The position numbers and the translations under genes were made by a program. From a virus, in IMG/VR virus record IMGVR_UViG_3300020724_000005: 64,000 nucleotides of DNA. One strand, 5' to 3'. This document shows positions 2,996 through 57,258 of this stretch, one piece after another (within the stretch, counting starts at the first letter, position 1; each line of letters begins with the position of its first letter). The notes under the pieces were generated by a model. The model saw only the letters and a list, made by a program, of their open reading frames with translations. It was not told the origin of the DNA and searched no databases.

Positions 2996-3009
2996 GGATT
3001 TGTATTTTC

Positions 3010-3017
3010 TATAAATA
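3010..3017 (-). promoter_or_regulatory. TATTTATA upstream box (class II)
   Basis: sense TATTTATA 14 nt upstream of ATG 2995. Confidence 0.35.
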
Positions 3018-3019
3018 TA

Positions 3020-3595
3020 CTAGATTTCGATAGCTTTGATCTTCTTCAGGTTCTCCTTGATCTCGTCGTAAACCTTGGTCTTGTCTCCGCCTTTCCAGCT
3101 TTCGACCTCTCCGTTCTCAGATACAAATGACTCGTCTTGCATCTCAAACCAGGAATCTATCGCCTTTTCTATGTCTTCTAGGGTAGCATTCTTGTTTGAG
3201 TTCAGAATTCCTTTTTCGTACTCTTCCCAACGACCTTCTTGCTTTATCTTAGACTCCATGTCTATGACGCAGTCAAAGCACATCTGGTGTATCGAATACA
3301 TCTTCTTATTGAGATCATGGGATTTCATTGGGTTCAAACACTTTGGACAGCACAAAGGCAGACTCAACAGCTTTTTCACGGAATCCAGCTTTGTCACTGT
3401 CTGTTTTATCCCTCGTTTTATAGTCCAAGTCTTACCATCTTCTTCCCAAATATCGCCCTCTAAATGATCTTCAGCCTTCTTTTCGTATCCAGACTGTATT
3501 TGGGTCTTGTCTCCCGTCTTTCCGGTTAGGAGGTTTCTCAGTCTTGTGACGTCCTTTTTAGAGAACTCTTTTTTTAGGTTTGATTCCTTTGCCAT
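3020..3595 (-). CDS. hypothetical zinc-ribbon protein
   Basis: 191 aa; CCPKC...CFDC four-Cys cluster. Confidence 0.55.
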   Translation of the reverse strand: MAKESNLKKEFSKKDVTRLRNLLTGKTGDKTQIQSGYEKKAEDHLEGDIWEEDGKTWTIKRGIKQTVTKLDSVKKLLSLPLCCPKCLNPMKSHDLNKKMYSIHQMCFDCVIDMESKIKQEGRWEEYEKGILNSNKNATLEDIEKAIDSWFEMQDESFVSENGEVESWKGGDKTKVYDEIKENLKKIKAIEI

Positions 3596-4882: not shown

Positions 4883-7800
4883 CTACTCGTGGTATACCTT
4901 TGAAAAACCGTCTTTGACTTTGTCTATGGAGATCTGATGATCTACTATGTCTTTTATGGATTCTATGTGAGATATTATGACCACAAATTTGAACTGAGTC
5001 TTTAGGTATTCCATCAATATAGAGACGTTTCTAAGATTTCCTTGGTCTAAAGTTCCCCAGCCCTCATCTATAACCAGGAAGTTAGGTCTTGGCAAAGAAG
5101 TCAAATTTATCAAAGAAGACCTTATTGCTAGAGAAGATATGAATTTTTCCATGCCACTGGACAGCTCTATTGGCCACTTTTTGGTCTCATCATACACTAT
5201 ATAAGCATTTATGTTCTTACCGTCAGACTGTATTGAGATACAGAAATCTACTATCTGAGCCAGTATGTTGTTTATCTCATCCTGTATTTTTGGTATCACC
5301 GAGCTTATCAAATCATATGGAAGTCCGTCTCTTCCTGTTGCAGAAAGATAATACTCGTAGTATTTGAACTTATCTTCTAAAGCCTTCAGGTTGTTTATGT
5401 TTAGGTTTGTTTTTGCTATCTCTTCTTCACACACGTTGATGTTTGTATTACAGCTCATAACGTATCCAGACACCTTAGAAAGATCAGACTTTAAAGAAGA
5501 TATCTCAGCCTGTAAAACATTTAGCCTTGATCTTATGTCTTTGTTCGATTCTATGGCGGCTTCTTTTTCATCATGCAGTTTGATCTTCGACTCTACATCC
5601 TTTATTGATGTCTCATTTTTATGAAGGTCCAGATCTATCTTATTCAGATCAGACTCTGTCTTCATCTTTTCATTCTTCTTCTTTGTTAAATTTACTTGGG
5701 CAGATTCATACGATGCAACTTTTGTATTTAAAATTTGAACTCTTCCTTTTAATTCCTCCAGCTCTAATACTACTTTTTTTGAATTTTCTTTGTCAGATTC
5801 TATAGAACCTTTTGTGGCTATTGCATCTTTCACAAATGCATTTTCCATGCAATACTTGCAGCTTTCATCATATTTTAAATCCTCAAGCTTTTTCATCTTT
5901 TCTAGCTTCTGGGATATATCATACTTTAGATTTTCTGAAAGTATAGACAGCTGAGCTATCTTATCAGTAGAATTTTTGAGATCAAGCTTTGCATCATTAT
6001 AGCTCAATTCATCTGATTTTTGAGCTTCATCTTCTGCTTTTTTTAGCTCTAATTCATTGTCTTTTAGCTTTTTTTCAAGGTCTTTCTTTTTATCATTTAA
6101 AGCAGATCTTACGTCAGTCATTGCTTTCTTTTGTGATTCTAACCTCTCTATGTCAAGTATATCTGAGTCTATCACCGCCAACTTTGAGCTCATTTTGACG
6201 TAATCTTCAGTTGCAATGTCTATTTGCTCTTCCAATATTTTTTTCTTTTCTTCGAGCTCTCTGTATTCTACAGAATACGATTTTAGACTTGAGTCTAGAT
6301 CCTTCAACTTTGAAAAGTAGTCGTATTTTTTGTATTCTTTTATGAGCACTGAATACTCTTTTATATTCTCACTTGCAATGCTGTTTAGGTCTTCAAAAAC
6401 TTTTATGTCCAAAAACTGAGACAGCAGATCCTTTCTTTCAGACTGCCCCATATCAATAAAACCAATGTTGTTATTCTGCATTGACATGCTAGTAAGAACA
6501 AAATCGTCATATGTTCCTATCACCGATCTTATTGATGCATTTGTGTCTGCTCTATCTTTACCGTTAAGGAGGATGATATTTCCTTGATCATCTGCGTAAT
6601 AAAAGCTTACATCTTGCTTTACACTGTCTGAGTTAGATCTGTATGACGCTCTTCTCTCTATGGTATAGATGTTTCCATCAAGTTCAAATTCAAATTTGCA
6701 ATAGAAGTCATTGCTGCGGTTGTTCATAACCATTGCTGCTTTGTTAGTCTTGGATGACTTGTCAAAAAGACAATACACAAGTGCTTCTATTGCAGAGCTT
6801 TTTCCAGATGCATTTCTGGCAAACACTCCATAAGATCCATTCATATCTGTAAAGTCTATTACATTGTCTTTTCCATAGCTGAACATGTTAGAGAACTCAA
6901 ATCTCTTTGGATTCCAGTGTATGTTTCTTATAGAATCTGTCTTTGGCAAGCTTTTATTTATCTCTGTGTTGAGTTCACACACCTTTTCTATATCTTCTTG
7001 AGATAATCCAAATTTAGACTTTAAATGATCTGTCAGCAGAAAGTTTTGATATGACACATCTCTTACATTAGAGTTGTTTACATTAACAAGAGATGCAGAT
7101 GTTTGGTCTTTTACAACCTGTTGAGTAAGCTCTATGACATTTTTTTGATCTTTTATTTCAGCCACTATGCTTTTTATTTCTGCTGGAGAAGTGTTTTTTG
7201 ATCTTATCTTCAAGTATATGTTTACAGGAAGATCTTTTGGGAGGTCTTTGTATATACCATTTTCTACGTCTATAGTATAAAACGCTGTATCATTTTGTAT
7301 CCTTACAAATTCTGAAGTTTTTGACTCTACATCCCACACAAGTATTCCATGGTCTAAAGACTCTCCATGGTCTTGTTGTATCAGGCTTCCTGGATAAGCT
7401 GCTGTCTTCTTGTCATTTACATACTGGCACGCAACATGTATGTCTCCAAGCAGTGCAAGATCAAACCCACCAAAGTCAGATGGGCTTACGCTATTGCCAG
7501 TAAGCTTGAACCCAAGATCAGTGTAAGAATCATTAACTGGTCCGTGGTACAGACATATCTTACATTCAGACTTTATATCAGACGCTTTTATGTAGTTTTT
7601 TACGTCATCAAATACTGACCAATGTACAAAATCTATGTTTGCTATCTTAAATACCCCGCTGTCTTTTAGATAAGTTATATTCTTGTCTGCCATTGCATTT
7701 ATGATAGGACTTAAGCTATCTAGCCTATCATTGTTGTTTAGATTTGCGTCATGATTGCCAGGTATAACTACAACTGGCAACAGCGCACTCATCATCCTTA

Positions 7801-8008
7801 AGAACTCTTGCACTTCTTGCACAAGCTCCGGCGTTATGTCTGTTTTTGAATGCACAACATCTCCAGTTATGCAAATTATGCTTTCATCTGTCTTTGTATT
7901 TTTTATGTAGTCTGAGACTTTTTGAAACACCCTTTTGTATTCAGCGTGTCTTTTAAAATTTCGCAGATGTATGTCTGATATGTGGTAGATCTTTTTTATT
8001 TTTAGCAT
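4883..8008 (-). CDS. fused Mre11/SbcD-like nuclease + Rad50/SbcC-like ATPase
   Basis: N-term phosphoesterase motifs SDIHL, GDVVH, GNHD, GDIH; then Walker A ARNASGKSS, long coiled coils with CKYC hook, LSSGM signature, Walker B FLVIDEG, ISH. Confidence 0.85.
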   Translation of the reverse strand: MLKIKKIYHISDIHLRNFKRHAEYKRVFQKVSDYIKNTKTDESIICITGDVVHSKTDITPELVQEVQEFLRMMSALLPVVVIPGNHDANLNNNDRLDSLSPIINAMADKNITYLKDSGVFKIANIDFVHWSVFDDVKNYIKASDIKSECKICLYHGPVNDSYTDLGFKLTGNSVSPSDFGGFDLALLGDIHVACQYVNDKKTAAYPGSLIQQDHGESLDHGILVWDVESKTSEFVRIQNDTAFYTIDVENGIYKDLPKDLPVNIYLKIRSKNTSPAEIKSIVAEIKDQKNVIELTQQVVKDQTSASLVNVNNSNVRDVSYQNFLLTDHLKSKFGLSQEDIEKVCELNTEINKSLPKTDSIRNIHWNPKRFEFSNMFSYGKDNVIDFTDMNGSYGVFARNASGKSSAIEALVYCLFDKSSKTNKAAMVMNNRSNDFYCKFEFELDGNIYTIERRASYRSNSDSVKQDVSFYYADDQGNIILLNGKDRADTNASIRSVIGTYDDFVLTSMSMQNNNIGFIDMGQSERKDLLSQFLDIKVFEDLNSIASENIKEYSVLIKEYKKYDYFSKLKDLDSSLKSYSVEYRELEEKKKILEEQIDIATEDYVKMSSKLAVIDSDILDIERLESQKKAMTDVRSALNDKKKDLEKKLKDNELELKKAEDEAQKSDELSYNDAKLDLKNSTDKIAQLSILSENLKYDISQKLEKMKKLEDLKYDESCKYCMENAFVKDAIATKGSIESDKENSKKVVLELEELKGRVQILNTKVASYESAQVNLTKKKNEKMKTESDLNKIDLDLHKNETSIKDVESKIKLHDEKEAAIESNKDIRSRLNVLQAEISSLKSDLSKVSGYVMSCNTNINVCEEEIAKTNLNINNLKALEDKFKYYEYYLSATGRDGLPYDLISSVIPKIQDEINNILAQIVDFCISIQSDGKNINAYIVYDETKKWPIELSSGMEKFISSLAIRSSLINLTSLPRPNFLVIDEGWGTLDQGNLRNVSILMEYLKTQFKFVVIISHIESIKDIVDHQISIDKVKDGFSKVYHE

Positions 8009-8940: not shown

Positions 8941-9153
8941 ATTACAGAATATGATAAAAAACTTATTAATAGATAAATTTAAAAAAAAAGTGAACAAAAA
9001 TAATTCCACTTTAAACGAGAATTTTTTTATTCCACAGAATTTTTTATTTTCTCTAAACGGAACGGGGAGATAGTAGTGGAACAAAGGGGCTGGCGCCCAA
9101 GCTACTTAATAACATAAGAATATAATAATACTATAAGTATACTATATAATACT
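8941..9153. promoter_or_regulatory. divergent AT-rich control region
   Basis: between leftward primase and rightward genes; TTCCAC at 9004 and 9030, inverted GTGGAA at 9076, GC hairpin GGGCTGGCGCCC ~9087. Confidence 0.3.
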
Positions 9154-13025: not shown

Positions 13026-14836
13026 TGCCACAAAAAACACCAGGACCCATAGCAGATCTTTCAGCATCTTACATGAGATTGATGGAAGCCTTAAGCACAT
13101 CTACGGCGATCTCAACGTCTTTAGATGCTTCTGTTGGTACTACTGCTGCCACTGGAATGGCCAAAGCATCAAAAAGCATATGGCAGACTATGTGGGATTA
13201 CCTAAAAAAGATACCTGGACAGCTGTTTGGGGGCACTGGAGGATCTGGAAAAAGTGCTAGTGACCCTAGTCAGTTAGGCATAGCTAAGGTTTTAGAAATA
13301 CTAGCTTCTATAGACTTGTGTTCTGTGATAAACACGTTGTCTAATCTTAAAGGAAAAGCGATATTTGATCCAAATAACCCACCAAAAGAATCAGGACTTC
13401 CATATACTAAATGGAAAGTACAAAAGGCGGCATATGACATCCAAAAAAGCCTGGATGCATTTTCTGCAGTATATGAAGCAACATCAGATCCTGCTGCTAC
13501 AATAAACAACTTGCTACTAGAGCTTGTTCCACTGCTAGAAGTAATAGTGGGACCTGCCTATTTAGGAGATCCTCAGATAAAACAATCATTTCCACAGACC
13601 TCGCCCTTCAACAATTTTATATCAGATCTAATACAAAAGCTGCTTAAAACAGAGAGGATAAACAATTCTAATAAGCCAGCAATAAAATCTATACTGACTT
13701 CAGTCGGACTTTTAAGACAGATATGCGTATTAATACAAGGCCTAACATCTCCAGCCAACCTGGCATCATATACAAGTAGCATTATAGATCCAAAGGTCGT
13801 GAAGTCTATAGATAGGCTTGGAGTAAATAACATGAACGTAAAGCAGATCATCGTGACTCTTACCCAGGTTCAAAAGAAACTAACTGCGATAGAAAGAACT
13901 CTTGCTGTAATAACAAACACCCTGTCTAGGGTGCAAGCATTCATAAAGATCTGTCTTTCTATAGTAAAGATATTCAAAATAATAATAAACTTCTTGAAAG
14001 CGCTTCCTATGCCTACCATGTACACTACAGTGGGCATAAATGTAACAATGTCTGAGGCAGAAAGGGAGCTGTCAGACGAATCAGACAGAATGATCGCAAT
14101 ATTAAGCGAGCTGAATATCATGATGGCCATAATAATATCAATGCTCCAAGCAGTAACAGGGGTCATAGATCTATTACTGACAAGCATGGATTCTATAGTA
14201 ACAAATCTTGAGTCTTGCACTAGAGGTGGAACAAATGAACCTCACATGCAAATGCTAAAAGATATCAAGCAGACAGTTCAAAACATAAGATCTAGCAATG
14301 ATGATGTTAAATCGTATATAGACAACTGTAGAAACAAAAAGAATAATAGCGATCTTTCATATTATAACTACACTATAAAAATACTCACCGAAGTAATAAA
14401 TGACAAGGAAGTTCAGAGTATCACTATACCTAGAAGGTATGGAATAGCAGTAAATTCAGCTGGAATAGAAGTAGTATCTACCGACCCTACGTATGCTTCA
14501 GATGATAGTATAATAATATCAGAGGTCAAATTGCTTTTAAACTCAAAACATCTAATAAAATCAAATCCGAACGCGTTGTCTTTAGAAGAACAGGCCATCG
14601 TGGAAGAATCTTCAAATTTTTTGGTAGACGATACAACTCCTATGGATGACATCCCTATAGATAGCCCAACAGACCAGATAGATGCTCCAGACAACGAAGA
14701 CGATAATAAAGGACTCGGAATCAACGCGTTCTTCAATAAACAGAAAGGTGGAAGGAAAATGAGAGAGAAAGTAAGAAAAATAATGAATCAGAGCAAACAA
14801 AAGCTAAATTCTGATCTACAAAACGTAAAAAAATAG
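13025..14836 (+). CDS. large baseplate/tail-associated protein
   Basis: 603 aa, long helical and hydrophobic segments (IKICLSIVKIFKIIINFL, IMMAIIISMLQAV); function unassigned. Confidence 0.6.
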   Translation: MPQKTPGPIADLSASYMRLMEALSTSTAISTSLDASVGTTAATGMAKASKSIWQTMWDYLKKIPGQLFGGTGGSGKSASDPSQLGIAKVLEILASIDLCSVINTLSNLKGKAIFDPNNPPKESGLPYTKWKVQKAAYDIQKSLDAFSAVYEATSDPAATINNLLLELVPLLEVIVGPAYLGDPQIKQSFPQTSPFNNFISDLIQKLLKTERINNSNKPAIKSILTSVGLLRQICVLIQGLTSPANLASYTSSIIDPKVVKSIDRLGVNNMNVKQIIVTLTQVQKKLTAIERTLAVITNTLSRVQAFIKICLSIVKIFKIIINFLKALPMPTMYTTVGINVTMSEAERELSDESDRMIAILSELNIMMAIIISMLQAVTGVIDLLLTSMDSIVTNLESCTRGGTNEPHMQMLKDIKQTVQNIRSSNDDVKSYIDNCRNKKNNSDLSYYNYTIKILTEVINDKEVQSITIPRRYGIAVNSAGIEVVSTDPTYASDDSIIISEVKLLLNSKHLIKSNPNALSLEEQAIVEESSNFLVDDTTPMDDIPIDSPTDQIDAPDNEDDNKGLGINAFFNKQKGGRKMREKVRKIMNQSKQKLNSDLQNVKK

Positions 14837-32942: not shown

Positions 32943-32957
32943 GTCGTTTGTTTTTGT

Positions 32958-32965
32958 TATAAATA
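32958..32965 (-). promoter_or_regulatory. TATTTATA upstream box (class II)
   Basis: 15 nt upstream of ATG 32942. Confidence 0.35.
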
Positions 32966-32973
32966 TACAAGAA

Positions 32974-39407: not shown

Positions 39408-40103
39408 CTATGTAAATTCGATCTCGTTCGTCTGACTGTCCCAGATGAAGCTTATAGGTTTGTTACTGTATTTGTAGTCCTCTCCCAAGACAGACGCGTT
39501 GAAGTAGTGAGTGTCCCCATCAAAGCGGTAACCGTGTCCGGAATGTATGTGGCCGCAGACGTGTATCTTGGGCTTAACGCTCTTGATCCTCTGTGCAAGC
39601 ATCTCGCATCCTAAATTATCGTAAAGGCCGATGACCTTATCCAAAACTCCGTGTGCAGGACCATGGGTGATCAATATGTCTGTGTTCTCTGGGATCATCA
39701 GCCACTTCTCCCACATTTCGGGTGAGTTTCTTGGAAGATTAAATGCCCAGTTGTAGAACTCAGGCTGCCAAGGTGAGCCCCATATTTTAAGCATCTGCTG
39801 ATAACCTTCTCCTACGCAAAGAAGATCATCTTGTAAATAGACAATATTCTTGTAAAAGTCTAAGATCTCTTTTGTCTTCTCAACGTTGTCTTGGAATCCC
39901 CAATCATGGTTGCCTGCGATGAATACCTTATGATCATACGTGGCTAGCTTATTGTACCATCCACAGAATTCACGAATCTCATGCTCATATCCCATCGAAG
40001 ATATATCGCCAGCATGGATTAATATATCCCCACCAGGAAGATCTTCAGTGATCTGCTTATGCTTAGTGTGAGTATCAGATATGAGCGTAATCTTGTATTT
40101 CAT
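39408..40103 (-). CDS. calcineurin-like metallophosphoesterase
   Basis: ISDTH, HAGDIS, GNHD, THGP, CGHIH motifs in order. Confidence 0.8.
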   Translation of the reverse strand: MKYKITLISDTHTKHKQITEDLPGGDILIHAGDISSMGYEHEIREFCGWYNKLATYDHKVFIAGNHDWGFQDNVEKTKEILDFYKNIVYLQDDLLCVGEGYQQMLKIWGSPWQPEFYNWAFNLPRNSPEMWEKWLMIPENTDILITHGPAHGVLDKVIGLYDNLGCEMLAQRIKSVKPKIHVCGHIHSGHGYRFDGDTHYFNASVLGEDYKYSNKPISFIWDSQTNEIEFT

Positions 40104-40967: not shown

Positions 40968-41072
40968 TTCGTTTTTCTTTTTGTTTGGTTAGTACTCCCA
41001 AGCGGTGCCGACCCGCCTTCTCCACCGTGAAAGGGTGGCGATCTAGCCAACGTGATCTATAGGAGCAATGTC

Positions 41073-41252
41073 TTATGCTAGGTAATATCCTGTGAAGCTT
41101 GGTTCCAACGCCCTCGCAAGGTTTTTAGCCTCTGACTCGATCACTGCTCCTGCCTTCGTGTATCCTTGCCAAAGAGGTGATGGTGTTATAGACCTCAGAA
41201 CGATCTTGTTTGGATTACCTTCTTCTTTTCTGAAAATTACTATCTTTCTCAT
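41073..41252 (-). CDS. hypothetical protein
   Basis: start set to MRKIVIFRKEEG; track N-extension reads through tRNA-Met. Confidence 0.5.
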   Translation of the reverse strand: MRKIVIFRKEEGNPNKIVLRSITPSPLWQGYTKAGAVIESEAKNLARALEPSFTGYYLA

Positions 41253-41281
41253 TATTTTTTGATTGAAACCTGTTAATTTGG

Positions 41282-41353
41282 TTGCGCCAGTGGGATTCGA
41301 ACCCACGACCCCCGGGTTATGAGCCCGATAAGCTACCGCTGCTCTACAGCGCA
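41282..41353 (-). tRNA. tRNA-Met (CAT)
   Basis: hand-folded cloverleaf, loop CTCATAA, T-arm GTGGG-TTCGAAT-CCCAC; three G:C pairs next to loop (initiator-like). Confidence 0.85.
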
Positions 41354-41516
41354 ATATAATTTTAAAAACGATCGTGGGTTGTCAACATCTTTCTTGTTGT
41401 CATCAGCCCCTTTTTCGCCGATCATTTTTATTTGATTGCTATATTATAAAAGTATTGAAACTTCTTTAACTTTTGCAATCTTTGTTTTGAGTGATCAGAT
41501 ATTTTATTCTCTGATC

Positions 41517-41913
41517 TGGTGTGGAACATGAGGGATTCGAACCCTCGTCCAAACAATGTTATCTAAGTAATTCTTTCACAAGCTTAGTGGATTTTTCTAA
41601 AAACACAAAATATGAAGTTTGATGTATGTGGGAAACCAACTTCTAAACAACCTGGTCTTGGAATTATTTTATAAGGGCTCCAACCTGCGACCCTCTCATT
41701 TGCACTTCTGTTTCTAGGCACGTGTGCACCGGCCCAAGGACTTAGGCGGCCATCTCTAGCTCACCTTCGGCGAACGCCATAGCGTCTTCGAATGTCCATG
41801 TAGAAAGCTCTACGTTTGCATTTGTGTTTTGATAGTCAGATTTAAGTGCGTCCGATCTAGCACTGCTTGCATCATCTCAAAGAGCTCTATCGCTGTCAAA
41901 ACCAGTATGCCCC
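41517..41913 (-). ncRNA. ssrA: tmRNA (SsrA)
   Basis: 5' GGGGCATACTGGTTTTGACAGCG; 3' GGACGAGGGTTCGAATCCCTCATGTTCCA; acceptor GGGGCAT/ATGTTCC with G3-U70; tag frame GCA(41819)...GCCGCCTAA(41742). Confidence 0.8.
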
Positions 41914-41932
41914 AGTCTCGTGCTTTATATAC

Positions 41933-41940
41933 TATAAATA
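41933..41940 (-). promoter_or_regulatory. TATTTATA upstream box (class II)
   Basis: 19 nt upstream of tmRNA 5' G (41913). Confidence 0.4.
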
Positions 41941-41948
41941 TACGTCTT

Positions 41949-42296
41949 TTAGTTTGATATTGGAAGTTTTTCTTTTGAGTTTATCCTTTTCTTCTTTTCT
42001 AGCGCTTCTTTGATCTCCGCACATAACTCATACTCCTCGAATCTGATCATATCATCCATCACAGCCTTAAGAGTTGGGATATAGTCCGCCTTATCTTTTG
42101 TAAATATTAACTCTTTTAAGTCTGCGGAATATTTCACATCAGTAAAGATCACTTCAAAAATACTGACTGTTTGTTTCTTATGCTTGATCGCATACAATAT
42201 TGTCTTGACCATCTTAACCAAAAGGTCGCGGTCTTTTTCTTTTATCTTTTGGAAGAACTCCTCCTTATTTTTAAAAGACAATACGTGTGATGCCAT
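41949..42296 (-). CDS. hypothetical protein
   Basis: 115-aa helical ORF, ATGA-type junction with upstream gene. Confidence 0.55.
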   Translation of the reverse strand: MASHVLSFKNKEEFFQKIKEKDRDLLVKMVKTILYAIKHKKQTVSIFEVIFTDVKYSADLKELIFTKDKADYIPTLKAVMDDMIRFEEYELCAEIKEALEKKKRINSKEKLPISN

Positions 42297-43033
42297 TAGT
42301 CATATGTGGATTTTACTTCAATATCTTTAATTTTTTCCAAAGCGATCGGCGGAATGTTATTCAATGTATAATATCCAGCTTTTAGATAATTTGGATCTTG
42401 ATAAAGTTTAAAATACTCACCAGGTATCATATCTGTATCTATCTTTAAAATAGCATACTTCTTAATCCCAGTCTTACTATACATTTGATAAGCTAATTGT
42501 TTGGCTACATTTTCCGTTTTTGCAAGATAAACTCTTTCTGGATGATATGATGCTTTTGATCTCGATTTGGGAACTAATCCTATGTCTTCAATCTTTTTCC
42601 AATTATCTAATGGGGCAATGTGATAGAGGGTTTTTGGGATCTTATTTACTTTAAAATCAAATTTAGCTTCACATCTTAAAAATATAGAATGTATTTTTTC
42701 ACTTTTTAGAGAACTTAAAAATGTAGTTTTATTGTATCTATCTTCAAACCTATTGGTATTACTATGAAGCTTCATATATGATATAAACCAGCCTAGATTA
42801 TTTAAGAGAACTAGTAGATCTTCTGCATCTTTAAGAGAAAAAGCATCTTTGCTTTTTAATATATCAATCTCAAAAGTATTTTCATCTTTCTCACTATATA
42901 TTTCATAATTAGGAAAGCGTCTATGCAGAATATCTATAGATTGTCCAATAGGAGTGGTCTTTATCTCACCTTCTCTAAGATTGAGATCATATTCTTCTTT
43001 ATAGAATTCTAAAAGTAATGTGAGTAACTTCAT
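42296..43033 (-). CDS. Tpt1/KptA-like (ADP-ribosyltransferase fold) protein, putative
   Basis: C-half LYHIAPLDNWKKIEDIGLVPKSR...RVYLAK...YAILKIDTDMIPGEYF...YYTLNNIPPIAL parallels KptA pattern LYHGT..I...GL.p..R..VHLS. Confidence 0.35.
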   Translation of the reverse strand: MKLLTLLLEFYKEEYDLNLREGEIKTTPIGQSIDILHRRFPNYEIYSEKDENTFEIDILKSKDAFSLKDAEDLLVLLNNLGWFISYMKLHSNTNRFEDRYNKTTFLSSLKSEKIHSIFLRCEAKFDFKVNKIPKTLYHIAPLDNWKKIEDIGLVPKSRSKASYHPERVYLAKTENVAKQLAYQMYSKTGIKKYAILKIDTDMIPGEYFKLYQDPNYLKAGYYTLNNIPPIALEKIKDIEVKSTYD

Positions 43034-43037
43034 CGAG

Positions 43038-43045
43038 TATAAATA
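43038..43045 (-). promoter_or_regulatory. TATTTATA upstream box (class II)
   Basis: 4 nt before ATG 43033. Confidence 0.3.
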
Positions 43046-43504
43046 TCAACCCTTAACAAGTGAGTCAGCCGCGTAGGTCATCATAGGGCTGTCTCCTTTG
43101 TGCCTCACGGTGTACCCAAGGCCCTCTGCCCAACCCACAGCCTCTCTCAAGACTTCGTTGGATTTGTATCTCGGATCAGGATTCAGATCGATGTCGATGT
43201 ACTTCGCTCTTGGCAGCCCGGCTTCCATTATATAATTTGCAAGGTCTATCGAATACCACACCTCGTTGATGAGCCTGGTCGAGATCTCTCTGTCCTTTGG
43301 AGTGGTGAACTTATCGTATATGACATGGGCGCCCTTGCCTGGAGTGTACATTGCCAAAACCAAAGCGTAAACTGTCACCCGGCCTTTTACCTGAGAGTCA
43401 CATCCGATGAGTATCTCTATGTCTTTGTGAGAACTCATGTACTGCTTCATGTAATCCAGAACTTCTACTGGAGTGTTTTCGTTTAACGTTTTGAACTTTC
43501 TCAT
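43046..43504 (-). CDS. YkuK/DUF458-type RNase H-like protein
   Basis: IGCDSQ, TPGKGAHV, DIDLNPDPRYKSN, AADSLVK match remembered DUF458 signature. Confidence 0.55.
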   Translation of the reverse strand: MRKFKTLNENTPVEVLDYMKQYMSSHKDIEILIGCDSQVKGRVTVYALVLAMYTPGKGAHVIYDKFTTPKDREISTRLINEVWYSIDLANYIMEAGLPRAKYIDIDLNPDPRYKSNEVLREAVGWAEGLGYTVRHKGDSPMMTYAADSLVKG

Positions 43505-43929
43505 GACACTGTGTGGTTTATCTGTACTCTAACGCAACTCTGTGGCCGTCTGCTCCTCATCAGATAGTTGTTTATGTACCCCATGATGTTAGCGCTGCCT
43601 ATAGGGTTTGCGCTGTGCGTATATATCTGCGGAAGAGCGATCTGTGTTTCTATGCTATGATCTACCAACCACTTTGCACAATCCATTCCAGTTTTCTCTT
43701 TTATATTATCATAGTCCAGGGTGTAGTTCGGAGACACGTTGGTATAGAACTCTGCCATCGCCGAGTCTCCAAGATCGTGGTCCAAAGATATGACCTCGAT
43801 GTTCTTAAGTCCTATCTCTATAACCTTTGAAACGAACTCATCATAATTTCTTACGACTGTCCACACCTTGTCCATTCCATTTGCTATTGGAGTTCTTACG
43901 TCGTCTAAATAGATCCAAACCTTTTCCAT
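43501..43929 (-). CDS. receiver-like domain protein (cyclic-phosphate-processing REC-like)
   Basis: start set to MEKVWIYLDDVRTP; ISLDHDLGD and THSANPIGSANI match cREC pattern. Confidence 0.5.
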   Translation of the reverse strand: MEKVWIYLDDVRTPIANGMDKVWTVVRNYDEFVSKVIEIGLKNIEVISLDHDLGDSAMAEFYTNVSPNYTLDYDNIKEKTGMDCAKWLVDHSIETQIALPQIYTHSANPIGSANIMGYINNYLMRSRRPQSCVRVQINHTVS

Positions 43930-43948
43930 GTTTTTTTGTTTTATCCTG

Positions 43949-44030
43949 TGCTCCAAGTGGGATTCGAACCCACACGTCTTACGACCACAGATCCTAAGTC
44001 TGTGCTGTCTACCAATTTCATCATCGGAGC
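43949..44030 (-). tRNA. tRNA-Leu (TAG)
   Basis: class II, loop CTTAGGA, long variable arm, T-arm GTGGG-TTCGAAT-CCCAC. Confidence 0.85.
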
Positions 44031-44224
44031 ATTTTACCACGTTTCATATCATCGTAGTTACTTCTGAGGTATCTAGACTGATACGGAATATGATTTAGTC
44101 TTCTTTTATAATTATCCCATTTTGCAATCGTTAGTAACAGTATCATCGCGCTTGTCGATACCACGCAAGCGGCAACGATGATCCATGCAAATACCTTATT
44201 ATCATGGTAGTGTTTGTGTGGCAT
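44021..44224 (-). CDS. hypothetical membrane protein
   Basis: 67 aa, one TM; last 10 nt overlap 5' end of tRNA-Leu. Confidence 0.45.
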   Translation of the reverse strand: MPHKHYHDNKVFAWIIVAACVVSTSAMILLLTIAKWDNYKRRLNHIPYQSRYLRSNYDDMKRGKMLR

Positions 44225-44233
44225 AGTTCATTT

Positions 44234-44353
44234 TTAGTTTTTATGTTCGCATGATTCGCAATATTCAGATCTTCGAGCATCATATTCCAGTCCGCATTTT
44301 TTACATATCATCCAGATCTCGTGGTTGAAAATCTTTATCAGTCTACTTATCAT
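44234..44353 (-). CDS. 39-aa zinc-ribbon peptide
   Basis: MISRLIKIFNHEIWMICKKCGLEYDARRSEYCESCEHKN; ATGA overlap with upstream stop. Confidence 0.35.
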   Translation of the reverse strand: MISRLIKIFNHEIWMICKKCGLEYDARRSEYCESCEHKN

Positions 44354-44520
44354 ATCAGTTTTATTTGAAACCTATCTTTCATCTTCTCCAGACTATCAAA
44401 GTCCCGAGTCCTGTCCAAGTTACCATTCCATGAAGTGACTCCTCGACAGATGTTCTTGTGGTTTATGTGTGTGTCAGAGGTGAAGAACATGTCTTGACCT
44501 TCTTTTAGTGTGATCTTCAT
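44350..44520 (-). pseudogene. N-terminal fragment of a metallophosphoesterase-like gene
   Basis: MKITLKEGQDMFFTSDTHINHKNICRG... has motif I only, ends after 56 aa. Confidence 0.35.
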
Positions 44521-44542
44521 TGCATTGTGTATTTTTATGCTG

Positions 44543-44616
44543 TGACTCGGATTGGATTCGAACCAATGACCCCCAGCTTAGAAGGCTGGTGCTCTATCCA
44601 GCTGAGCTACCGAGCC
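44543..44616 (-). tRNA. tRNA-Arg (TCT)
   Basis: canonical fold, loop CTTCTAA. Confidence 0.9.
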
Positions 44617-44622
44617 AAAATA

Positions 44623-44853
44623 TTAGTCTGTCCACTCTACGACCTCGTACTCTGTCTTTGTGAACGAGAGATATGGTGCCGAGGTGACTGGATCTTTTGA
44701 GTCTTTTATGTACTTTGGATTCGTGATGTATACTATCTTCGAATCATCTCCTTGCTCCCTTTCCTGTATTTTGCAAGGGATCGGGGTATCTGGAAGTTTG
44801 TATAATGTCTTCTCTGATCCTGGTTTGATCTTTATTGTCTTTGGTTGTTTCAT
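44623..44853 (-). CDS. hypothetical protein
   Basis: start set to MKQPKTIKIKPG; track extension overlaps tRNA-Thr. Confidence 0.5.
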   Translation of the reverse strand: MKQPKTIKIKPGSEKTLYKLPDTPIPCKIQEREQGDDSKIVYITNPKYIKDSKDPVTSAPYLSFTKTEYEVVEWTD

Positions 44854-44868
44854 TACTTTGATTTTTAG

Positions 44869-44940
44869 AGGACACACCCGGAACCGACCCAGGGACTCAT
44901 GCTTACAAGGCAAGTGTTTTTCCAGTTAAACTACGCGTCC
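44869..44940 (-). tRNA. tRNA-Thr (TGT)
   Basis: loop CTTGTAA; unusual T-loop GTCGGTT; one U-U in anticodon stem. Confidence 0.75.
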
Positions 44941-45104
44941 AAAATGAAGCTTTTAGATTATCCCCAGAGCTTCTCAACTGTGCTGGCATACGTTTTGGCT
45001 GCTCTGAATGAGCTCTCTTCCTCCAGAGGTTTAGTGGCGGGTAGTGTAGCTATACACCTTAACCAGACTTTCCTATCTTCGATCCCTTGGCCTTCGGGCT
45101 TTCG

Positions 45105-45179
45105 TGTACCATACAGGGTTTGAACCTGTGACCTACGGCTATAGGAGGCCGGCGCTCTAACCAACTGAGCTAATGGTAC
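45105..45179 (-). tRNA. atypical tRNA, 8-nt anticodon loop (Arg-CCT-like)
   Basis: good acceptor, D and T arms (ACAGG-TTCAAAC-CCTGT); anticodon stem CGGC/GCCG encloses CTCCTATA. Confidence 0.55.
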
Positions 45180-45186
45180 AAAAATG

Positions 45187-45258
45187 CGGTCCATGACGGT
45201 TTCGATCCGTCTACTCTGCATCGACAGTGCAGTATGATAGCCACTTCACCAAAAGACC
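45187..45258 (-). tRNA. tRNA-Asp (GTC)
   Basis: loop CTGTCGA; T-loop ATCGAAA (A at position 54). Confidence 0.85.
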
Positions 45259-45263
45259 AATTG

Positions 45264-45349
45264 CACGGGTTAAGGGATTTGCACCACCTTACAGTCATCA
45301 TACTTCTTGGCTGCGCTACCAAGTGTGCTTCTCTATACACCAAACCCGT
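45264..45349 (-). tRNA. tRNA-like element, class-II shape, anticodon undetermined
   Basis: perfect 7-bp acceptor ACGGGTT/AACCCGT, T-loop-like TGCAAAT, extra arm AGT..ACT, but central arm CTTGG-TAGCGCAG-CCAAG has 8-nt loop lacking U33 context. Confidence 0.35.
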
Positions 45350-45360
45350 ATTTTTTACTG

Positions 45361-45405
45361 TATTATAAAAGTACTAAAAGATCTTGACAATTATCAAACT
45401 ATCTT
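45361..45405 (-). promoter_or_regulatory. internal promoter of tRNA array (class I box)
   Basis: minus sense TTTG-N21-TACTTTTATAAT ending ~12 nt before element 45349. Confidence 0.4.
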
Positions 45406-45410
45406 TTTAG

Positions 45411-45486
45411 TGGCGGGTATAGTAGGGATCGAACCTACGACCAACAGATTAACAGCCTGCTGCGCTACCAACTGCGCTATATACCC
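45411..45486 (-). tRNA. tRNA-Asn (GTT)
   Basis: loop CTGTTAA; CCA encoded. Confidence 0.9.
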
Positions 45487-45495
45487 AAATTTATG

Positions 45496-45568
45496 TGGAA
45501 CTATCAAGACTCGAACTTGAATTACCTACGTATCAGGCAGGCGTGCTAAACCATTCTACTATAGTTCC
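45496..45568 (-). tRNA. tRNA-Ile (GAT)
   Basis: loop CTGATAC, perfect T-arm; weak D-stem. Confidence 0.8.
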
Positions 45569-45573
45569 ATGTG

Positions 45574-45658
45574 CGGAAGATGGAGGTAACGATCCCCCTT
45601 GGGTTTTATCCCAGCCATAGCTTAGCAAGCCAGCCGATTACCTTTCTCGCAATCTTCC
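45574..45658 (-). tRNA. tRNA-Ser (GCT)
   Basis: class II, loop TTGCTAA, T-loop ATCGTTA. Confidence 0.8.
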
Positions 45659-45663
45659 TTTTG

Positions 45664-45735
45664 GGGTCTAGCCCGGTATCGAACCGAGTTATCATGCTCC
45701 ACAAACATGCGCTTCACCTTAAAGCTTCAAGACCC
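45664..45735 (-). tRNA. tRNA-His (GTG)
   Basis: loop TTGTGGA; extra 5' G(-1) opposite C73. Confidence 0.85.
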
Positions 45736-45738
45736 ATA

Positions 45739-45828
45739 TGGCGGAAGAGGCAGGACTCGAACCTACACACCGAGCAAACGATACCGGTTTTCAAGACCGG
45801 GGCGATACCAATTACGCTTTACCCTTCC
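45739..45828 (-). tRNA. tRNA-Ser (TGA)
   Basis: class II, stem CCGGT/ACCGG, loop CTTGAAA; CCA encoded. Confidence 0.85.
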
Positions 45829-45830
45829 AA

Positions 45831-45908
45831 AATAACCACTACCTATCGGACGTCATCTTTAACCTTTTGGGATCCTAACCTCTCGGTCTCTAAAGGCTTG
45901 TGGTTATT
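45831..45908 (-). other. unassigned 78-nt element filling a tRNA-sized slot
   Basis: 9-bp terminal inverted repeat AATAACCAC/GTGGTTATT; no cloverleaf found on either strand. Confidence 0.2.
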
Positions 45909-45909
45909 G

Positions 45910-45981
45910 TAGTCGCTGATGGGATCGAACCACCATCTTCGGGACCAAAACCCGACGTGTTAGCCTTTATACTAAGCGACT
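45910..45981 (-). tRNA. tRNA-Gln (TTG)
   Basis: loop TTTTGGT, perfect acceptor AGTCGCT/AGCGACT. Confidence 0.85.
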
Positions 45982-45987
45982 ATGAGG

Positions 45988-46058
45988 AGCAGATACCCGG
46001 AATCGAACCGAGGCCTCCTACTTGGAAGGAAGGAGTACTACCACTATACGATATCTGC
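45988..46058 (-). tRNA. tRNA-Gly (TCC)
   Basis: loop CTTCCAA. Confidence 0.85.
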
Positions 46059-46064
46059 TTAAAG

Positions 46065-46136
46065 TAGTCCCTGTGAATTACGATATCACAACCTCTTGGA
46101 TGTAAGCCAAGTGCTCTCCCGTTGAGCTAAGGGACT
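46065..46136 (-). tRNA. tRNA-Val (TAC)
   Basis: loop CTTACAT, T-loop ATCGTAA. Confidence 0.85.
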
Positions 46137-46243
46137 AAGTATATTATTATTCGACTTTACTCACTTATAAACCTAAAACATTTGCAACTGAATTAGGTAT
46201 TTGTCAATTTATTCTGTTCTTAGCTGTGAGACTAATAATATTG

Positions 46244-46316
46244 TGGACCGTTCCAGATTCGAACCGGAGACTCCTGCGTGCAAGGCAAGTGTGTTAGCCA
46301 ACTATACCAACAGCCC
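46244..46316 (-). tRNA. tRNA-Ala (TGC)
   Basis: loop CTTGCAC; G3-U70 present. Confidence 0.9.
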
Positions 46317-46322
46317 ATTGTG

Positions 46323-46395
46323 TCTAGATGAAAGGTGACGATCCTTCCTAGTCTTGCTCCCAAAGCAAGTGCCTCACCAACTCGGCCACATCTAG
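46323..46395 (-). tRNA. tRNA-Pro (TGG)
   Basis: loop TTTGGGA; C1-G72; T-loop ATCGTCA. Confidence 0.85.
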
Positions 46396-46429
46396 ATATT
46401 TACTTTCCAATATGTCAAAGATCACACTG

Positions 46430-46501
46430 AGGTCGATATAGGACTCAAACCCATGTGGCAGGTTTTGCAGACCTGCGCCTAAATCACTCGGCCAATCGAC
46501 C
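46430..46501 (-). tRNA. tRNA-Cys (GCA)
   Basis: loop CTGCAAA; discriminator U73. Confidence 0.9.
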
Positions 46502-46507
46502 TTACTG

Positions 46508-46580
46508 TACCCTCAAAGAGATTCGAACTCCTATCTCCTGGTCCGTAGCCAGACGTTCTGATCCTTTGAACTACAAGGGC
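46508..46580 (-). tRNA. tRNA-Arg (ACG)
   Basis: loop CTACGGA. Confidence 0.85.
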
Positions 46581-46586
46581 ATTCTG

Positions 46587-46659
46587 CGCGCACGTAGGGA
46601 CTCGAACCCTCATCTTTGGTTTTGGAGACCAATACTCTAGCCAATTGAGCTACGCACGC
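46587..46659 (-). tRNA. tRNA-Trp (CCA)
   Basis: loop CTCCAAA. Confidence 0.85.
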
Positions 46660-46667
46660 ATTTTATA

Positions 46668-47051
46668 TTATAGATCCTTTATGAACTCACTCACAAGCCT
46701 TTTGTTCTCTGACTCGTCTCCGTCGTATCCTCCTGTGCTGAATACTGACCCTTCACGATCTCTGTATTTGAGAGAAGATACTGATGAGGACTCTAACTGC
46801 AACTGACCTTCGAATCCGTAGCAAGAACAGTGTGATCCGTGTATTTCAAATAGCCCCCCTGACGTCTTGTCTCTCAGAAGGAAGAACGATCTCGAATCGC
46901 ATCCCCAAGAACCTATAGACTCATAAGCTATGAGGACTTCTTTATTTTCAAGATCCGATCCGTCACCTTCTCCGTATTCCTGTGTGAGACGCTCTATGAT
47001 CTCGAATTCTGTCTTGCCTTGAAGATCTCCTAAAGTTAGTACGCTTGTCAT
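46668..47051 (-). CDS. hypothetical protein
   Basis: 127 aa; GSWGCDSRSFFLL...HGSHCSCYGFEGQ. Confidence 0.6.
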   Translation of the reverse strand: MTSVLTLGDLQGKTEFEIIERLTQEYGEGDGSDLENKEVLIAYESIGSWGCDSRSFFLLRDKTSGGLFEIHGSHCSCYGFEGQLQLESSSVSSLKYRDREGSVFSTGGYDGDESENKRLVSEFIKDL

Positions 47052-47052
47052 A

Positions 47053-47298
47053 TTATCTGTATTTTCTTATGAGTTTAAAAAGCTCTCGTATGTCTGTGAA
47101 TTTCAATGTTTGTCCTGGCTTTATAGGAATGAACGCTATCGTAAATCCGTGGTTGCCGCAAAAGTAGTCTTCCTTCTTTATCCTGTTACCGTTCACGCTA
47201 TCAACATATATCCAAGGAAAATTGCCTGCGAGTTTTACTTCTATCCCGAGTCGTTTCATCCTGTCTATGAATACCGTCAATATGTCTCTCTGCTTCAT
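47053..47298 (-). CDS. hypothetical protein
   Basis: 81-aa ORF. Confidence 0.55.
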   Translation of the reverse strand: MKQRDILTVFIDRMKRLGIEVKLAGNFPWIYVDSVNGNRIKKEDYFCGNHGFTIAFIPIKPGQTLKFTDIRELFKLIRKYR

Positions 47299-47383
47299 TT
47301 CCTATTGCTGTTTGGTATGTTATAAAAGTAAACAAAATAATCGACATTTTAAAGCTTTTTGACGTACATTTGTTTTTTTACTG
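47299..47383 (-). promoter_or_regulatory. intergenic cassette C1
   Basis: sense box TACTTTTATAAC; opposite strand TCGACA(47341)-N18-TACATTTG(47365-47372). Confidence 0.5.
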
Positions 47384-47457
47384 TGCGCCCGGTAGGGTTC
47401 GAACCTACGACCCCCTGGTTAAAAGCCAGGTGCATCTACCAACTGAGCTACGAGCGC
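47384..47457 (-). tRNA. tRNA-Lys (TTT)
   Basis: stem CCTGG/CCAGG, loop CTTTTAA; imperfect D-stem. Confidence 0.85.
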
Positions 47458-47527
47458 ATTCTTTGAAGTTTGCCACCCGTGTTTCAGAGCAGCGCTATCG
47501 TTTTCGTTTCATTTTCGTGTTTTTGTG

Positions 47528-47599
47528 TGGTAATGAGGAATTCCGAGATCCTGCCTACGGTGCTTCAAACCGCCGCTCTGCCATCTGAGCTACATTACC
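47528..47599 (-). tRNA. tRNA-Phe (GAA)
   Basis: loop TTGAAGC; unusual T-loop CTCGGAA. Confidence 0.8.
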
Positions 47600-56718: not shown

Positions 56719-57258
56719 TTATCCTAATAGCCAGCTCAGCTTTCTTCTAGACTCAGCAACGTGCCATTTGACTGTGTTCTCTACCGTGTCTAGCATGTCT
56801 CCGATCTCGCTGTACTTGTAGCCGATAGCAGCAAGCCTCATGACCTTCTCAGAAGACCTTGGCAGCAGAGACATTGCGGTCTCAAACTGCTTGGCTGCCT
56901 CTGACCTTCCTGCTTCATTGTAGGCCACAGACCTGTACATGCTCTTGATCTCTGCAAGCACTGACCTGTCGTTGGACACATCTCTTCTTTTGATGGCCTT
57001 GGCTGTAGTTATCGCGTTGTTCTTGATCACTGTCCTCATCCAGCCCTCGAACGATCCTATGCCTTGGTATGACTGTATCTTCTGGAACACCTTCAAGAAC
57101 CCATCGTTGATCACCTCTTCAAGGTCTCTGCTGTCTTTGAAGTACTTATAGAGCATGCGATGCATGCCTGGATAGTAGTGCTTATACACCTCTTCTTGGC
57201 ATTTCCTGTCGTTCTCTCTGCATCCGGCTATGAGCTCGTGTATCTGTGTGTGGTCCAT
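56719..57258 (-). CDS. ECF-type sigma-70 family factor
   Basis: region 2 (DLEEVINDGFLKVFQKIQSY..FEGWMRTVIKNNAI) and region 4 HTH (YKYSEIGDMLDTVENTVKWHVAESRRKL). Confidence 0.75.
   Translation of the reverse strand: MDHTQIHELIAGCRENDRKCQEEVYKHYYPGMHRMLYKYFKDSRDLEEVINDGFLKVFQKIQSYQGIGSFEGWMRTVIKNNAITTAKAIKRRDVSNDRSVLAEIKSMYRSVAYNEAGRSEAAKQFETAMSLLPRSSEKVMRLAAIGYKYSEIGDMLDTVENTVKWHVAESRRKLSWLLG

Follow-up and report, generated by a model that had tools for sequence, protein, structure and literature searches.

Evidence for a phage-encoded trans-translation system: a full-length tmRNA with a long acidic tag and an SmpB gene in an uncultured freshwater phage

Genes for transfer-messenger RNA (tmRNA) are known from phages, and tmRNA together with the protein SmpB is known from megaphages. 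A tmRNA was found in 402 of 18,146 phage genomes (2.3%) (Buchholz et al. 2022, PMC9004378), so the kind is already established. Described cases include Bacillus phage G and the Bxz1-like mycobacteriophages (Hudson et al. 2014, PMC4131195), and tmRNAs and SmpB are reported in huge phages and Lak megaphages (Al-Shayeb et al. 2020, PMC7162821). The roles suggested for them are maintenance of the hijacked translation machinery, amino-acid recycling and sensing of the host state (PMC7162821, PMC9004378). Here we describe a one-piece tmRNA (ssrA) gene and an SmpB gene in a 64,000-nucleotide (nt) stretch of DNA from IMG/VR virus record IMGVR_UViG_3300020724_000005, referred to below as the window. 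The source is an uncultured freshwater phage of about 157 kb. We consider it likely that the two genes form a functional, phage-encoded trans-translation system; the tmRNA itself is, as judged from its sequence, very probably functional. The coordinates of all features are collected in Table 1.

ARAGORN calls a one-piece tmRNA on the minus strand at 41521–41913, with the tag ANVELSTWTFEDAMAFAEGELEMAA. The Rfam model RF00023 matches the window over all of its positions (1–374 of 374) with 69.6 bits (E=4.9e-25), far beyond chance; the gathering score of the model is 47 bits. About 22 distinct homologous tmRNAs, defined by ARAGORN and Rfam, were found on viral and metagenome contigs, and relatives score 59–99 bits on RF00023. 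A first-pass annotation made from the letters alone had proposed a tmRNA here, and the two programs, the covariation across the family and the selection on the tag frame all agree with it. The 5' end that it gave (GGGGCAUACUGGUUUUGACAGCG, reading downward from 41913 on the minus strand), the T-arm, the acceptor helix GGGGCAU/AUGUUCC with its G3-U70 pair and the discriminator A are each present in the sequence, and its length of about 392 nt equals the count to the discriminator. Its lower boundary at 41517 has to be moved, because the true 3' end is the discriminator at 41522.

The tRNA-like domain shows strong covariation. All 7 bp of the acceptor stem are canonical in 22 of 22 family members, and positions 5–7 show 3–4 pair types each. 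The alanine identity pair G3:U70 is also found in all 22, and A73 in every member except L006, which has U. The T-stem shows compensatory changes in all five pairs, and the T-loop is of the GUUCGAAU type. Acceptor stem and T-arm were tested together in a gap-free, fixed-length construct with anchor-based annotation of each sequence. Across 12 distinct sequences, 144 of 144 cells hold standard pairs, and 8 of the 12 pairs have changed on both sides. The covariation score is 0.495, compared with 0.131 ± 0.029 in shuffles, and none of 500 shuffles reaches the real score; slid registers bring the pairing down to 44–66%. Full-length MAFFT alignments (A1, A2) had been discarded, with the 5' ends 1–2 nt out of register and the region of pseudoknots 2 to 4 (PK2–PK4) unalignable, and RNAalifold on mini-constructs (A3) was discarded as well, having recovered the structure in part only. 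Two kinds of odd members occur in the family. In L006 (4185–4659), which has the discriminator U, about 60 nt are inserted in the region of pseudoknot 1 (PK1), and this RNA is called by ARAGORN yet lies under the Rfam gathering score. L018 (7845–8223), and with it L033, has an 8-nt T-loop (UAUCGUAU) and an altered T-stem.

The pseudoknots are supported to different degrees. Stem 1 (S1) of PK1 is compensatory across the family, with AGUGC/GCACU, AGGGUU/AACCCU, AGUGUU/AACACU and AGAGUU/AACUCU; stem 2 (S2) is less certain and varies between sub-families. In PK2 the stems stand at a homologous position with differing sequences (UGCAC/GUGCA, UCACU/AGUGA, CACAU/AUGUG, GUACC/GGUAC and UGAGU/ACUCA). 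Of the four pseudoknots named in the first-pass annotation, compensatory change is thus seen in S1 of PK1 and in both stems of PK2, and PK3 and PK4 remain single-sequence candidates. The 3' strand of helix P2, GCUUGU, is invariant in 14 of 14 sequences and lies inside the 20-mer TCTTTGAGATGATGCAAGCA that was used as the family probe.

This invariant 20-mer retrieves 7 loci in IMG/VR and 19 metagenome loci, and has no match in 185,579 bacterial and archaeal species genomes (one genome per species), which argues against a recent bacterial origin. The related IMG/VR contigs span 136–170 kb. On the contigs with diverged phage-type SmpBs, the tmRNA lies upstream of tRNA-Met and tRNA-Glu, as in the window. 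Searches of GenBank phages by megablast and blastn gave no close relatives; the sole matches are 35–39 nt of the T-arm in crAss-like phages. Probing IMG/VR with the neighboring 245-aa protein and with the exact 23-mer of the 5' end gave no relatives. The record of crAss-like phage cr114_1 (NC_055897.1, 19180–19622; L159:2946–3388) bears a "tmRNA, SsrA" annotation, which is probably false; the ARAGORN call there is permuted and overlaps a tRNA-His, and it was dropped as a comparator.

The tag open reading frame (ORF) has no start codon, is placed after PK1 and ends in a hydrophobic ...AA C-terminus. ARAGORN gives the same frame and tag that the first-pass annotation had read, from GCA (41819) through 25 codons to UAA (41742). 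Among 17 unique sequences (23-codon cores), the entropy at the three codon positions is 0.42/0.39/1.10 in the tag frame. The summed Nei-Gojobori ratio of nonsynonymous to synonymous change (pN/pS) over the same cores is 0.37 in this frame, compared with 1.55 and 1.29 in the other two. By these measures the tag frame is under protein-level purifying selection across the family, and the substitution pattern as a whole indicates that the tmRNA helices and the tag frame are kept by selection across a diverged phage clade. The family tags vary one theme: ANVELSTWTFEDAMAFAEGELEMAA, ...AEGEFAMAA, ...AEGELAIAA, ...CEGELAVAA and ...VGGDLALAA, and further AKVELSTWTVEDALAFVDGEYAVAA, AVELSTMTFEDVMSFVSADYAVAA, AEELSSTTYDDIMAFMDADYALAA, ..NEISDFTFEDAMSFVSGEVAIAA and ..DEKSTFSFEDAMSFVNADFALAA. 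Tags of 24 residues are those of 25 residues minus exactly one codon. The stop is TAA in the window and TAG in several relatives. The family C-terminus can be written as [Y/F/L]-A-[L/V/I/M]-A-A, and a 16-residue N-terminal extension, conserved and acidic, precedes the host-like end. The window ending GELEMAA recurs in three other nucleotide variants, and since these differ synonymously only, the Glu at −4 is maintained and is not a recent defect. Directly 5' of the resume codon, an A-Y-A-A-A-Y motif is present throughout the family (ACAAAU in the window). The tag frame of E. coli tmRNA opens with GCA AAC. The first-pass annotation had described the resume codon as standing in the E. coli context; this holds for GCA AAC, while the upstream ACAAAU follows the A-Y-A-A-A-Y motif of the family and of Bacteroidota.

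The RNA and its tag are related to those of Bacteroidota. At least 120 genome contigs, almost all of them from Bacteroidota, contain a 25-nt block of the T-arm and acceptor stem, GTTTGGACGAGGGTTCGAATCCCTC; the carriers are Flavobacteriales, Sphingobacteriales, Bacteroidales and Cytophagales. A further block shared with Bacteroidota tmRNAs is GGGGUCGACYGGUUUUGACAGC at the 5' end. By BLAST, likeness to bacterial tmRNAs is limited to nt 327–393 of the window RNA (about 67 nt at the 3' end). This comparison places the window tmRNA in a phage lineage that diverged long ago and has a tRNA-like domain of host type. It shares with Bacteroidota ssrA the acceptor stem with G3:U70 and A73, the T-arm, P2, the tag ORF and a predicted architecture of PK1 before the tag and PK2–PK4 after it, as well as the 5' GGGG...GGUUUUGACAGC and 3' GUUUGGACGAGGGUUCGAAUCCCUC blocks. 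P2 is GCAAGC/GCUUGU in the window and mostly GCAUGC/GCAUGU in the aligned Bacteroidota tmRNAs, and the resume codon is GCA (Ala) in the window and GGC (Gly) in Bacteroidota. The tags differ most in length and charge. Bacteroidota tags have 8–10 residues, mostly GENNYALAA but also GENNYAMAA, GEDNYAMAA, GNTQYAMAA and GNSYSYAMAA, with a net charge of 0 to −1 and without the 16-residue extension; the family tags carry −4 to −6, and the 25-residue window tag −6. At the C-terminus, YALAA/YAMAA of Bacteroidota corresponds to the family consensus given above, and by this likeness the last five tag residues across the family copy the Bacteroidota degron. The phage probably infects Bacteroidota. The tag had been called long and non-canonical in the first-pass annotation. 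It is long by comparison with the likely host lineage, and the Glu at −4 and the extension do depart from the usual form; the MAA ending is normal for the phylum because Bacteroidota tags include ...AMAA forms, and long tags have precedents.

SmpB consists of an OB-fold body and a basic tail at the C-terminus, which probes the empty mRNA channel. The window SmpB gene, a component that the earlier reading overlooked, encodes a full-length protein that scores 159.3 bits with PF01668, 158.6 bits with NF003843 (cut-off 130) and 149 bits with TIGR00086 (cut-off 119). Against solved structures, residues 3–141 match 5zey_C (E=2.6e-33), and residues 4–143 match E. coli ribosome-bound chains. The C-terminal tail GKRLYDKKEAIKERDIKIQTQKEL is present and hardly varies within the phage clade; the G-K and D-K residues where the tail begins are the same in the phage clade, in the bacterial sequences and in E. 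coli. Among 5.8 billion proteins searched, a graded clade of phage-type SmpBs of 140–148 aa was found, with 97% to 58% identity to the window protein. Bacterial SmpBs are likewise full length with a tail, and none found exceeds 53% identity. In the window and in L004, L006, L007 and L028, SmpB is encoded 4–7 kb downstream of the tmRNA. Among PHROGs, the window SmpB matches phrog_6791 (E=1.7e-41), a family labelled "unknown function" there; by this match it could be annotated as SmpB.

Several points weigh against a working tmRNA–SmpB pair. The stems of PK1 and PK2 were found by per-sequence search held to homologous positions, and such a search favors pairs. An unconstrained pseudoknot search of single sequences scores no better than shuffles; the support for the pseudoknots is therefore their conserved position with changed sequence. 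The candidates PK3 and PK4 were drawn from the window sequence alone, in a region that aligns poorly across the family. In the tag, the Glu at −4 of the window sub-lineage departs from the family Ala and might weaken recognition by some proteases. In the acceptor, a G4:U69 wobble is seen in the window copy alone, where relatives have G-C. After the discriminator the window reads A-CAC-CAG, so that CCA is not encoded, as the first-pass annotation had observed; relatives L004, L007, L014 and L018 encode it. Both features appear tolerable, and post-transcriptional addition of CCA to this RNA is plausible. SmpB was not found within 7–10 kb downstream of the tmRNA in L016/L036, L018/L033, L037 and L012, and the pairing of tmRNA and SmpB is thus shown only for the window sub-family.

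The genomic setting is that of a phage. The window encodes a baseplate wedge/J protein, a fused SbcD/SbcC-like nuclease, a DNA primase and a sigma factor, and most of its remaining large ORFs match no family. The baseplate wedge protein is, along its full length, 47% identical to its counterpart in Flavobacterium phage vB_FspM_immuto, a myovirus of 160 kb and the nearest cultured relative; immuto is absent from both the SmpB and the tmRNA searches of GenBank phages. By exact protein match, the region lies on a JGI metagenome contig of 157,443 bp, Ga0214247_1000015 of 3300021135. Together with the homologues on IMG/VR viral contigs, these genes bear out the description of the tmRNA as phage-encoded. 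The tmRNA gene stands full length in a bona fide phage genome and is neither a prophage flank nor an attachment-site fragment. Among the phage genes, the 1041-aa protein has nuclease and ATPase subunits fused, and the proteins most like it come from Microcystis phage Mel-JY01 and a metagenomic phage of 484 kb.

A possible signal for transcription lies upstream of the tmRNA. The box TATTTATA, which the first-pass annotation had placed 19 nt upstream of the 5' end, sits inside the motif GTATATTTATAG, and this motif is both conserved and over-represented. With at most one mismatch it has 5 sites in the window, against 0.5 expected and with none of 100 shuffles reaching this count, and TATATTTAT is kept upstream of nearly all family tmRNAs despite differing flanks. 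The recurrent motif and the phage sigma factor suggest a phage-specific promoter class. A sigma-70 promoter scan upstream of the tmRNA and a scan for intrinsic terminators called none. The hairpin just 3' of the tmRNA has a compensatory variant in L004 (GATTAGA/TCTAATC) and is possibly a processing or termination element; in some relatives, clear intrinsic terminators directly follow the tmRNA.

The tmRNA closes an array of about 21 tRNAs. The order tmRNA, tRNA-Met, tRNA-Glu is conserved in L004, L006, L007, L016, L028 and L036. Genes of RNA-repair type stand nearby: the tmRNA is flanked by metallophosphoesterase, RNaseH-like and cyclic-phosphate-processing receiver-domain genes, and in relatives (L004:8171–9307; L006:8853–9980) an RNA ligase (PF09414) lies directly upstream of SmpB, with an AAA_33 kinase farther upstream. 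tmRNA has been reported as the substrate that RtcB repairs most often in bacteria (PMC11090510). With the tRNA array and these neighbors, the setting suggests that the tmRNA/SmpB neighborhood is a module for upkeep of translation and RNA repair. The 245-aa protein directly upstream of the tmRNA occurs in 82 blocks of the assembly collection. Its assignment as an RNA 2'-phosphotransferase was dropped, the NCBIfam match being faint (E=0.008, 15.7 bits against a cut-off of 231) and without support from the PDB. Two tRNAs of the array are unusual. The one at 47528–47599 (minus strand) is found by Rfam only (49.5 bits) and is unreported by ARAGORN. The other, at 45104–45179 (minus strand), has an 8-nt anticodon loop, CUCCUAUA; ARAGORN gives it the anticodon 'ccta', and Rfam scores it as tRNA with 61 bits. 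Its positional orthologue (L036:771–845) has a normal CAU anticodon, with CTCATAA there in place of CTCCTATA in the window. This tRNA could be degenerate, or it could be a quadruplet or amber-type suppressor.

Table 1. Positions of the tmRNA, SmpB and associated features in the window
Feature	Position	Strand	Remarks
One-piece tmRNA (ssrA) gene	41522..41913	minus	392 nt to discriminator A; ARAGORN, Rfam RF00023, ~22 homologues
Acceptor stem 5' strand GGGGCAU (P1)	41907..41913	minus	pairs with AUGUUCC 41523-41529
T-arm GAGGG-UUCGAAU-CCCUC (41530-41546) and acceptor 3' strand (41523-41529)	41523..41546	minus	compensatory changes
P2 3' strand GCUUGU	41578..41583	minus	pairs with GCAAGC 41865-41870; closes pseudoknot/tag domain
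PK1 (nt 50-78), S1 AGUGC/GCACU, S2 UAGAU/AUCUG	41836..41864	minus	S1 covaries
Tag frame	41742..41819	minus	resume codon GCA 41817-41819, 25 codons, stop UAA 41742-41744; encodes ANVELSTWTFEDAMAFAEGELEMAA
PK2 (nt 177-213), S1 UUGGGC/GCCUAG, S2 UGCAC/GUGCA	41701..41737	minus	both stems kept
Candidate PK3 (nt 219-256) and PK4 (nt 256-300)	41614..41695	minus	drawable as H-type pseudoknots from window sequence
SmpB, 144 aa	36909..37343	minus	Pfam PF01668, NCBIfam equivalogs; 4.2 kb downstream of tmRNA, same strand
Promoter-like motif GTATATTTATAG	41932-41943	minus	19 nt upstream of mature tmRNA 5' end
GTATATTTATAG sites	3009-3020, 9131-9142, 14373-14384, 32957-32968, 41932-41943	minus	mostly just upstream of ORFs
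Hairpin GATCAGA ... TCTGATC	41493..41516	minus	just 3' of tmRNA; without U-tract
tRNA array including tmRNA	40992..47599	minus	20 ARAGORN calls and one Rfam-only call
Metallophosphoesterase, RNaseH-like PF04308 and cREC_REC (cyclic-phosphate-processing receiver domain) genes	39408-40103, 43046-43504, 43501-43932	minus	flank tmRNA
245-aa protein	42296-43033	minus	directly upstream of tmRNA; window lineage only; no PDB or PHROG match
ECF-like sigma-70-family protein	56719-57258	minus	phage-encoded sigma factor
1041-aa fused protein	4883-8008	minus	N-terminal calcineurin-like phosphoesterase (SbcD/Mre11-like) and SbcC/SMC-like part

The way in which the pair would rescue ribosomes is inferred from canonical tmRNA biology. 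Transcription of the tmRNA would start from a phage promoter motif, host tRNA-processing enzymes would trim the transcript, and the host CCA-adding enzyme would complete it with CCA. Host alanyl-tRNA synthetase (AlaRS) would attach alanine to it by way of G3:U70 and A73. The charged RNA, together with phage SmpB and host EF-Tu, would enter ribosomes stalled at the 3' end of broken mRNAs; the nascent chain would move onto the alanine and translation would resume at GCA. In this way (A)ANVELSTWTFEDAMAFAEGELEMAA would be appended and the ribosome freed at UAA, and the host-like C-terminus would route the product to host ClpXP-type proteases. The likely benefit for the phage is that ribosomes are kept free and amino acids recycled while mRNAs are cut, either in phage-induced decay of host mRNA or by RNA-targeting host defences. 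Such a benefit during mRNA cutting fits the position of the tmRNA in a tRNA array beside RNA-repair-type genes. The acidic 16-residue extension probably binds a specific partner, for example an adaptor or a site on a protease.

One alternative, which we regard as unlikely, accepts the rescue system as real and holds that the tag is not mainly a degron for host proteases. The extension would give another fate, such as capture by a phage-encoded factor, sequestration, or delivery to a phage-specific protease or adaptor, and phage-tagged chains would be handled apart from host-tagged ones. Purifying selection on an extension that host tags lack is in its favor, as are the difference in charge, the recurrence of unrelated long tags in other phage tmRNAs and the Glu at −4 in the window sub-lineage. 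Against this, the family C-terminus copies the host degron, and the ORFs scanned around the tmRNA and SmpB include no recognised gene for a protease or an adaptor. A decoy function is very improbable. In this case the RNA would titrate away SmpB, EF-Tu or AlaRS of the host and thereby inhibit its trans-translation, as has been proposed for the tRNA-like-domain-only RNA of mycobacteriophage DS6A; a molecule of this kind is noted to inhibit tmRNA (Hudson et al. 2014, PMC4131195), and the tRNA-like domain of the window is of host type. For a decoy no tag frame would be required, but the frame here is intact and under protein-level selection; the pseudoknots are maintained, and the phage brings its own full-length SmpB with a conserved tail.

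There is a still slighter chance that the gene is a passenger without function in infection, either a copy of a host ssrA or an attachment-site remnant. The ssrA gene is a frequent integration site of temperate phages, which carry pieces of it along (PMC9004378), and some IMG/VR contigs with the same tRNA-like domain have host-like 9-residue tags and look like flanks, which they probably are, of prophage or host origin. The window gene, in contrast, is full length, shares with any bacterial tmRNA found only the 3' segment of about 67 nt and the short 5' block, and belongs to a family whose 20-mer occurs in none of the species genomes searched. Its covariation extends across phage contigs whose SmpBs share only 58–97% identity, and there is no integrase among the called genes within 10 kb. 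Least credible of all is that the window is bacterial or plasmid DNA with a cellular tmRNA: a tmRNA, SmpB and about 21 tRNAs do resemble a cellular gene set, but the baseplate, primase and SbcCD-like genes among large ORFs mostly without family match, the baseplate identity to immuto, the 157-kb contig, the relatives of similar size in IMG/VR and the absence of any rRNA family by Rfam in the window all contradict it. A phage-encoded trans-translation system is the reading that we retain. A family with so many diverged homologues offers a clean comparative handle on phage tmRNA function, and a culturable relative or host, should one be found, would allow direct mutation of the tag extension and of the phage SmpB.

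OM43 phage Melnitz and the pelagimyophages (PMC9004378) also have a complete phage ssrA of bacterial-lineage type. Theirs is a circularly permuted two-piece tmRNA, controlled in some cases by a glutamine riboswitch and reported without a phage SmpB, whereas the window tmRNA is one-piece, the window has no Rfam riboswitch match and SmpB is present. Among GenBank phages, convincing SmpB genes are found only in records of 540–735 kb, compared with about 157 kb for the window lineage, and no cultured phage below 200 kb has one; the remaining matches, at record ends or on short fragments, resemble host DNA or the flanks of prophages. The closest of these SmpBs are in metagenomic phage records of 635–642 kb and show 50–53% identity to the window protein. 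In the megaphage records LR756502 and LR745206, no tmRNA was found within 20 kb of SmpB, while the two genes are 4–7 kb apart in the window sub-family.

Mycobacteriophage Bxz1 (cluster C1), a myovirus of about 156 kb, is similar in layout, with a one-piece tmRNA at the end of a large tRNA array. Its tag, ATDTDATVTDAEIEAFFAEEAAALV, also has 25 codons and is acidic (−7), and it occupies nt 96–173, compared with 95–172 in the window. Bxz1 differs in its actinobacterial host and in a tag that ends in ALV, and the search of phage records for SmpB gave no match in it. The positional similarity between its tag and those of the window family is marginal (z 1.6–1.9, p ~0.03–0.06), so homology of the tags cannot be claimed. 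Bxz1 also encodes gp200 (NC_004687.1, 118906–119247; L161:18907–19248), annotated as 'RF-1 domain peptide chain release factor', which may be an ArfB-like alternative rescue factor.

Long tags are also predicted by ARAGORN on other IMG/VR contigs with a Bacteroidota-type tRNA-like domain: GNTNFWSLVNESVNAPVTEELLAA, ANAQIEANMNKVFSLLREEVAVAA and AKALYVIENMHNISTSAKVEAVEYAYAA. The first of these, with 24 residues, marks a second, unrelated phage tmRNA family that has three sequence variants on several contigs of about 270 kb (L174, L177, L182, L185, L189, L192, L206, L217 and L220). Additional long tags are predicted on L165, L234 and L178, and the range in these other IMG/VR families is 24–28 residues. 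We suggest tentatively, as a possibility that has the odds against it, that lineage-specific acidic tags of about 24–29 residues are a general hallmark of phage tmRNAs (the window family, Bxz1 and at least three other IMG/VR families). The extension would then be a dedicated recognition module before a copy of the host degron, steering or speeding the fate of the rescued chains, and with SmpB and the RNA-repair-type genes it would counter RNA-cutting host defences. Relative to the systems known so far, what is new is a predicted complete tmRNA–SmpB pair in a lineage of about 157 kb and not only in megaphages, a tag that splits into a host-type degron and a phage-specific extension, both under selection, and the recurrence of long tags across phage tmRNAs.

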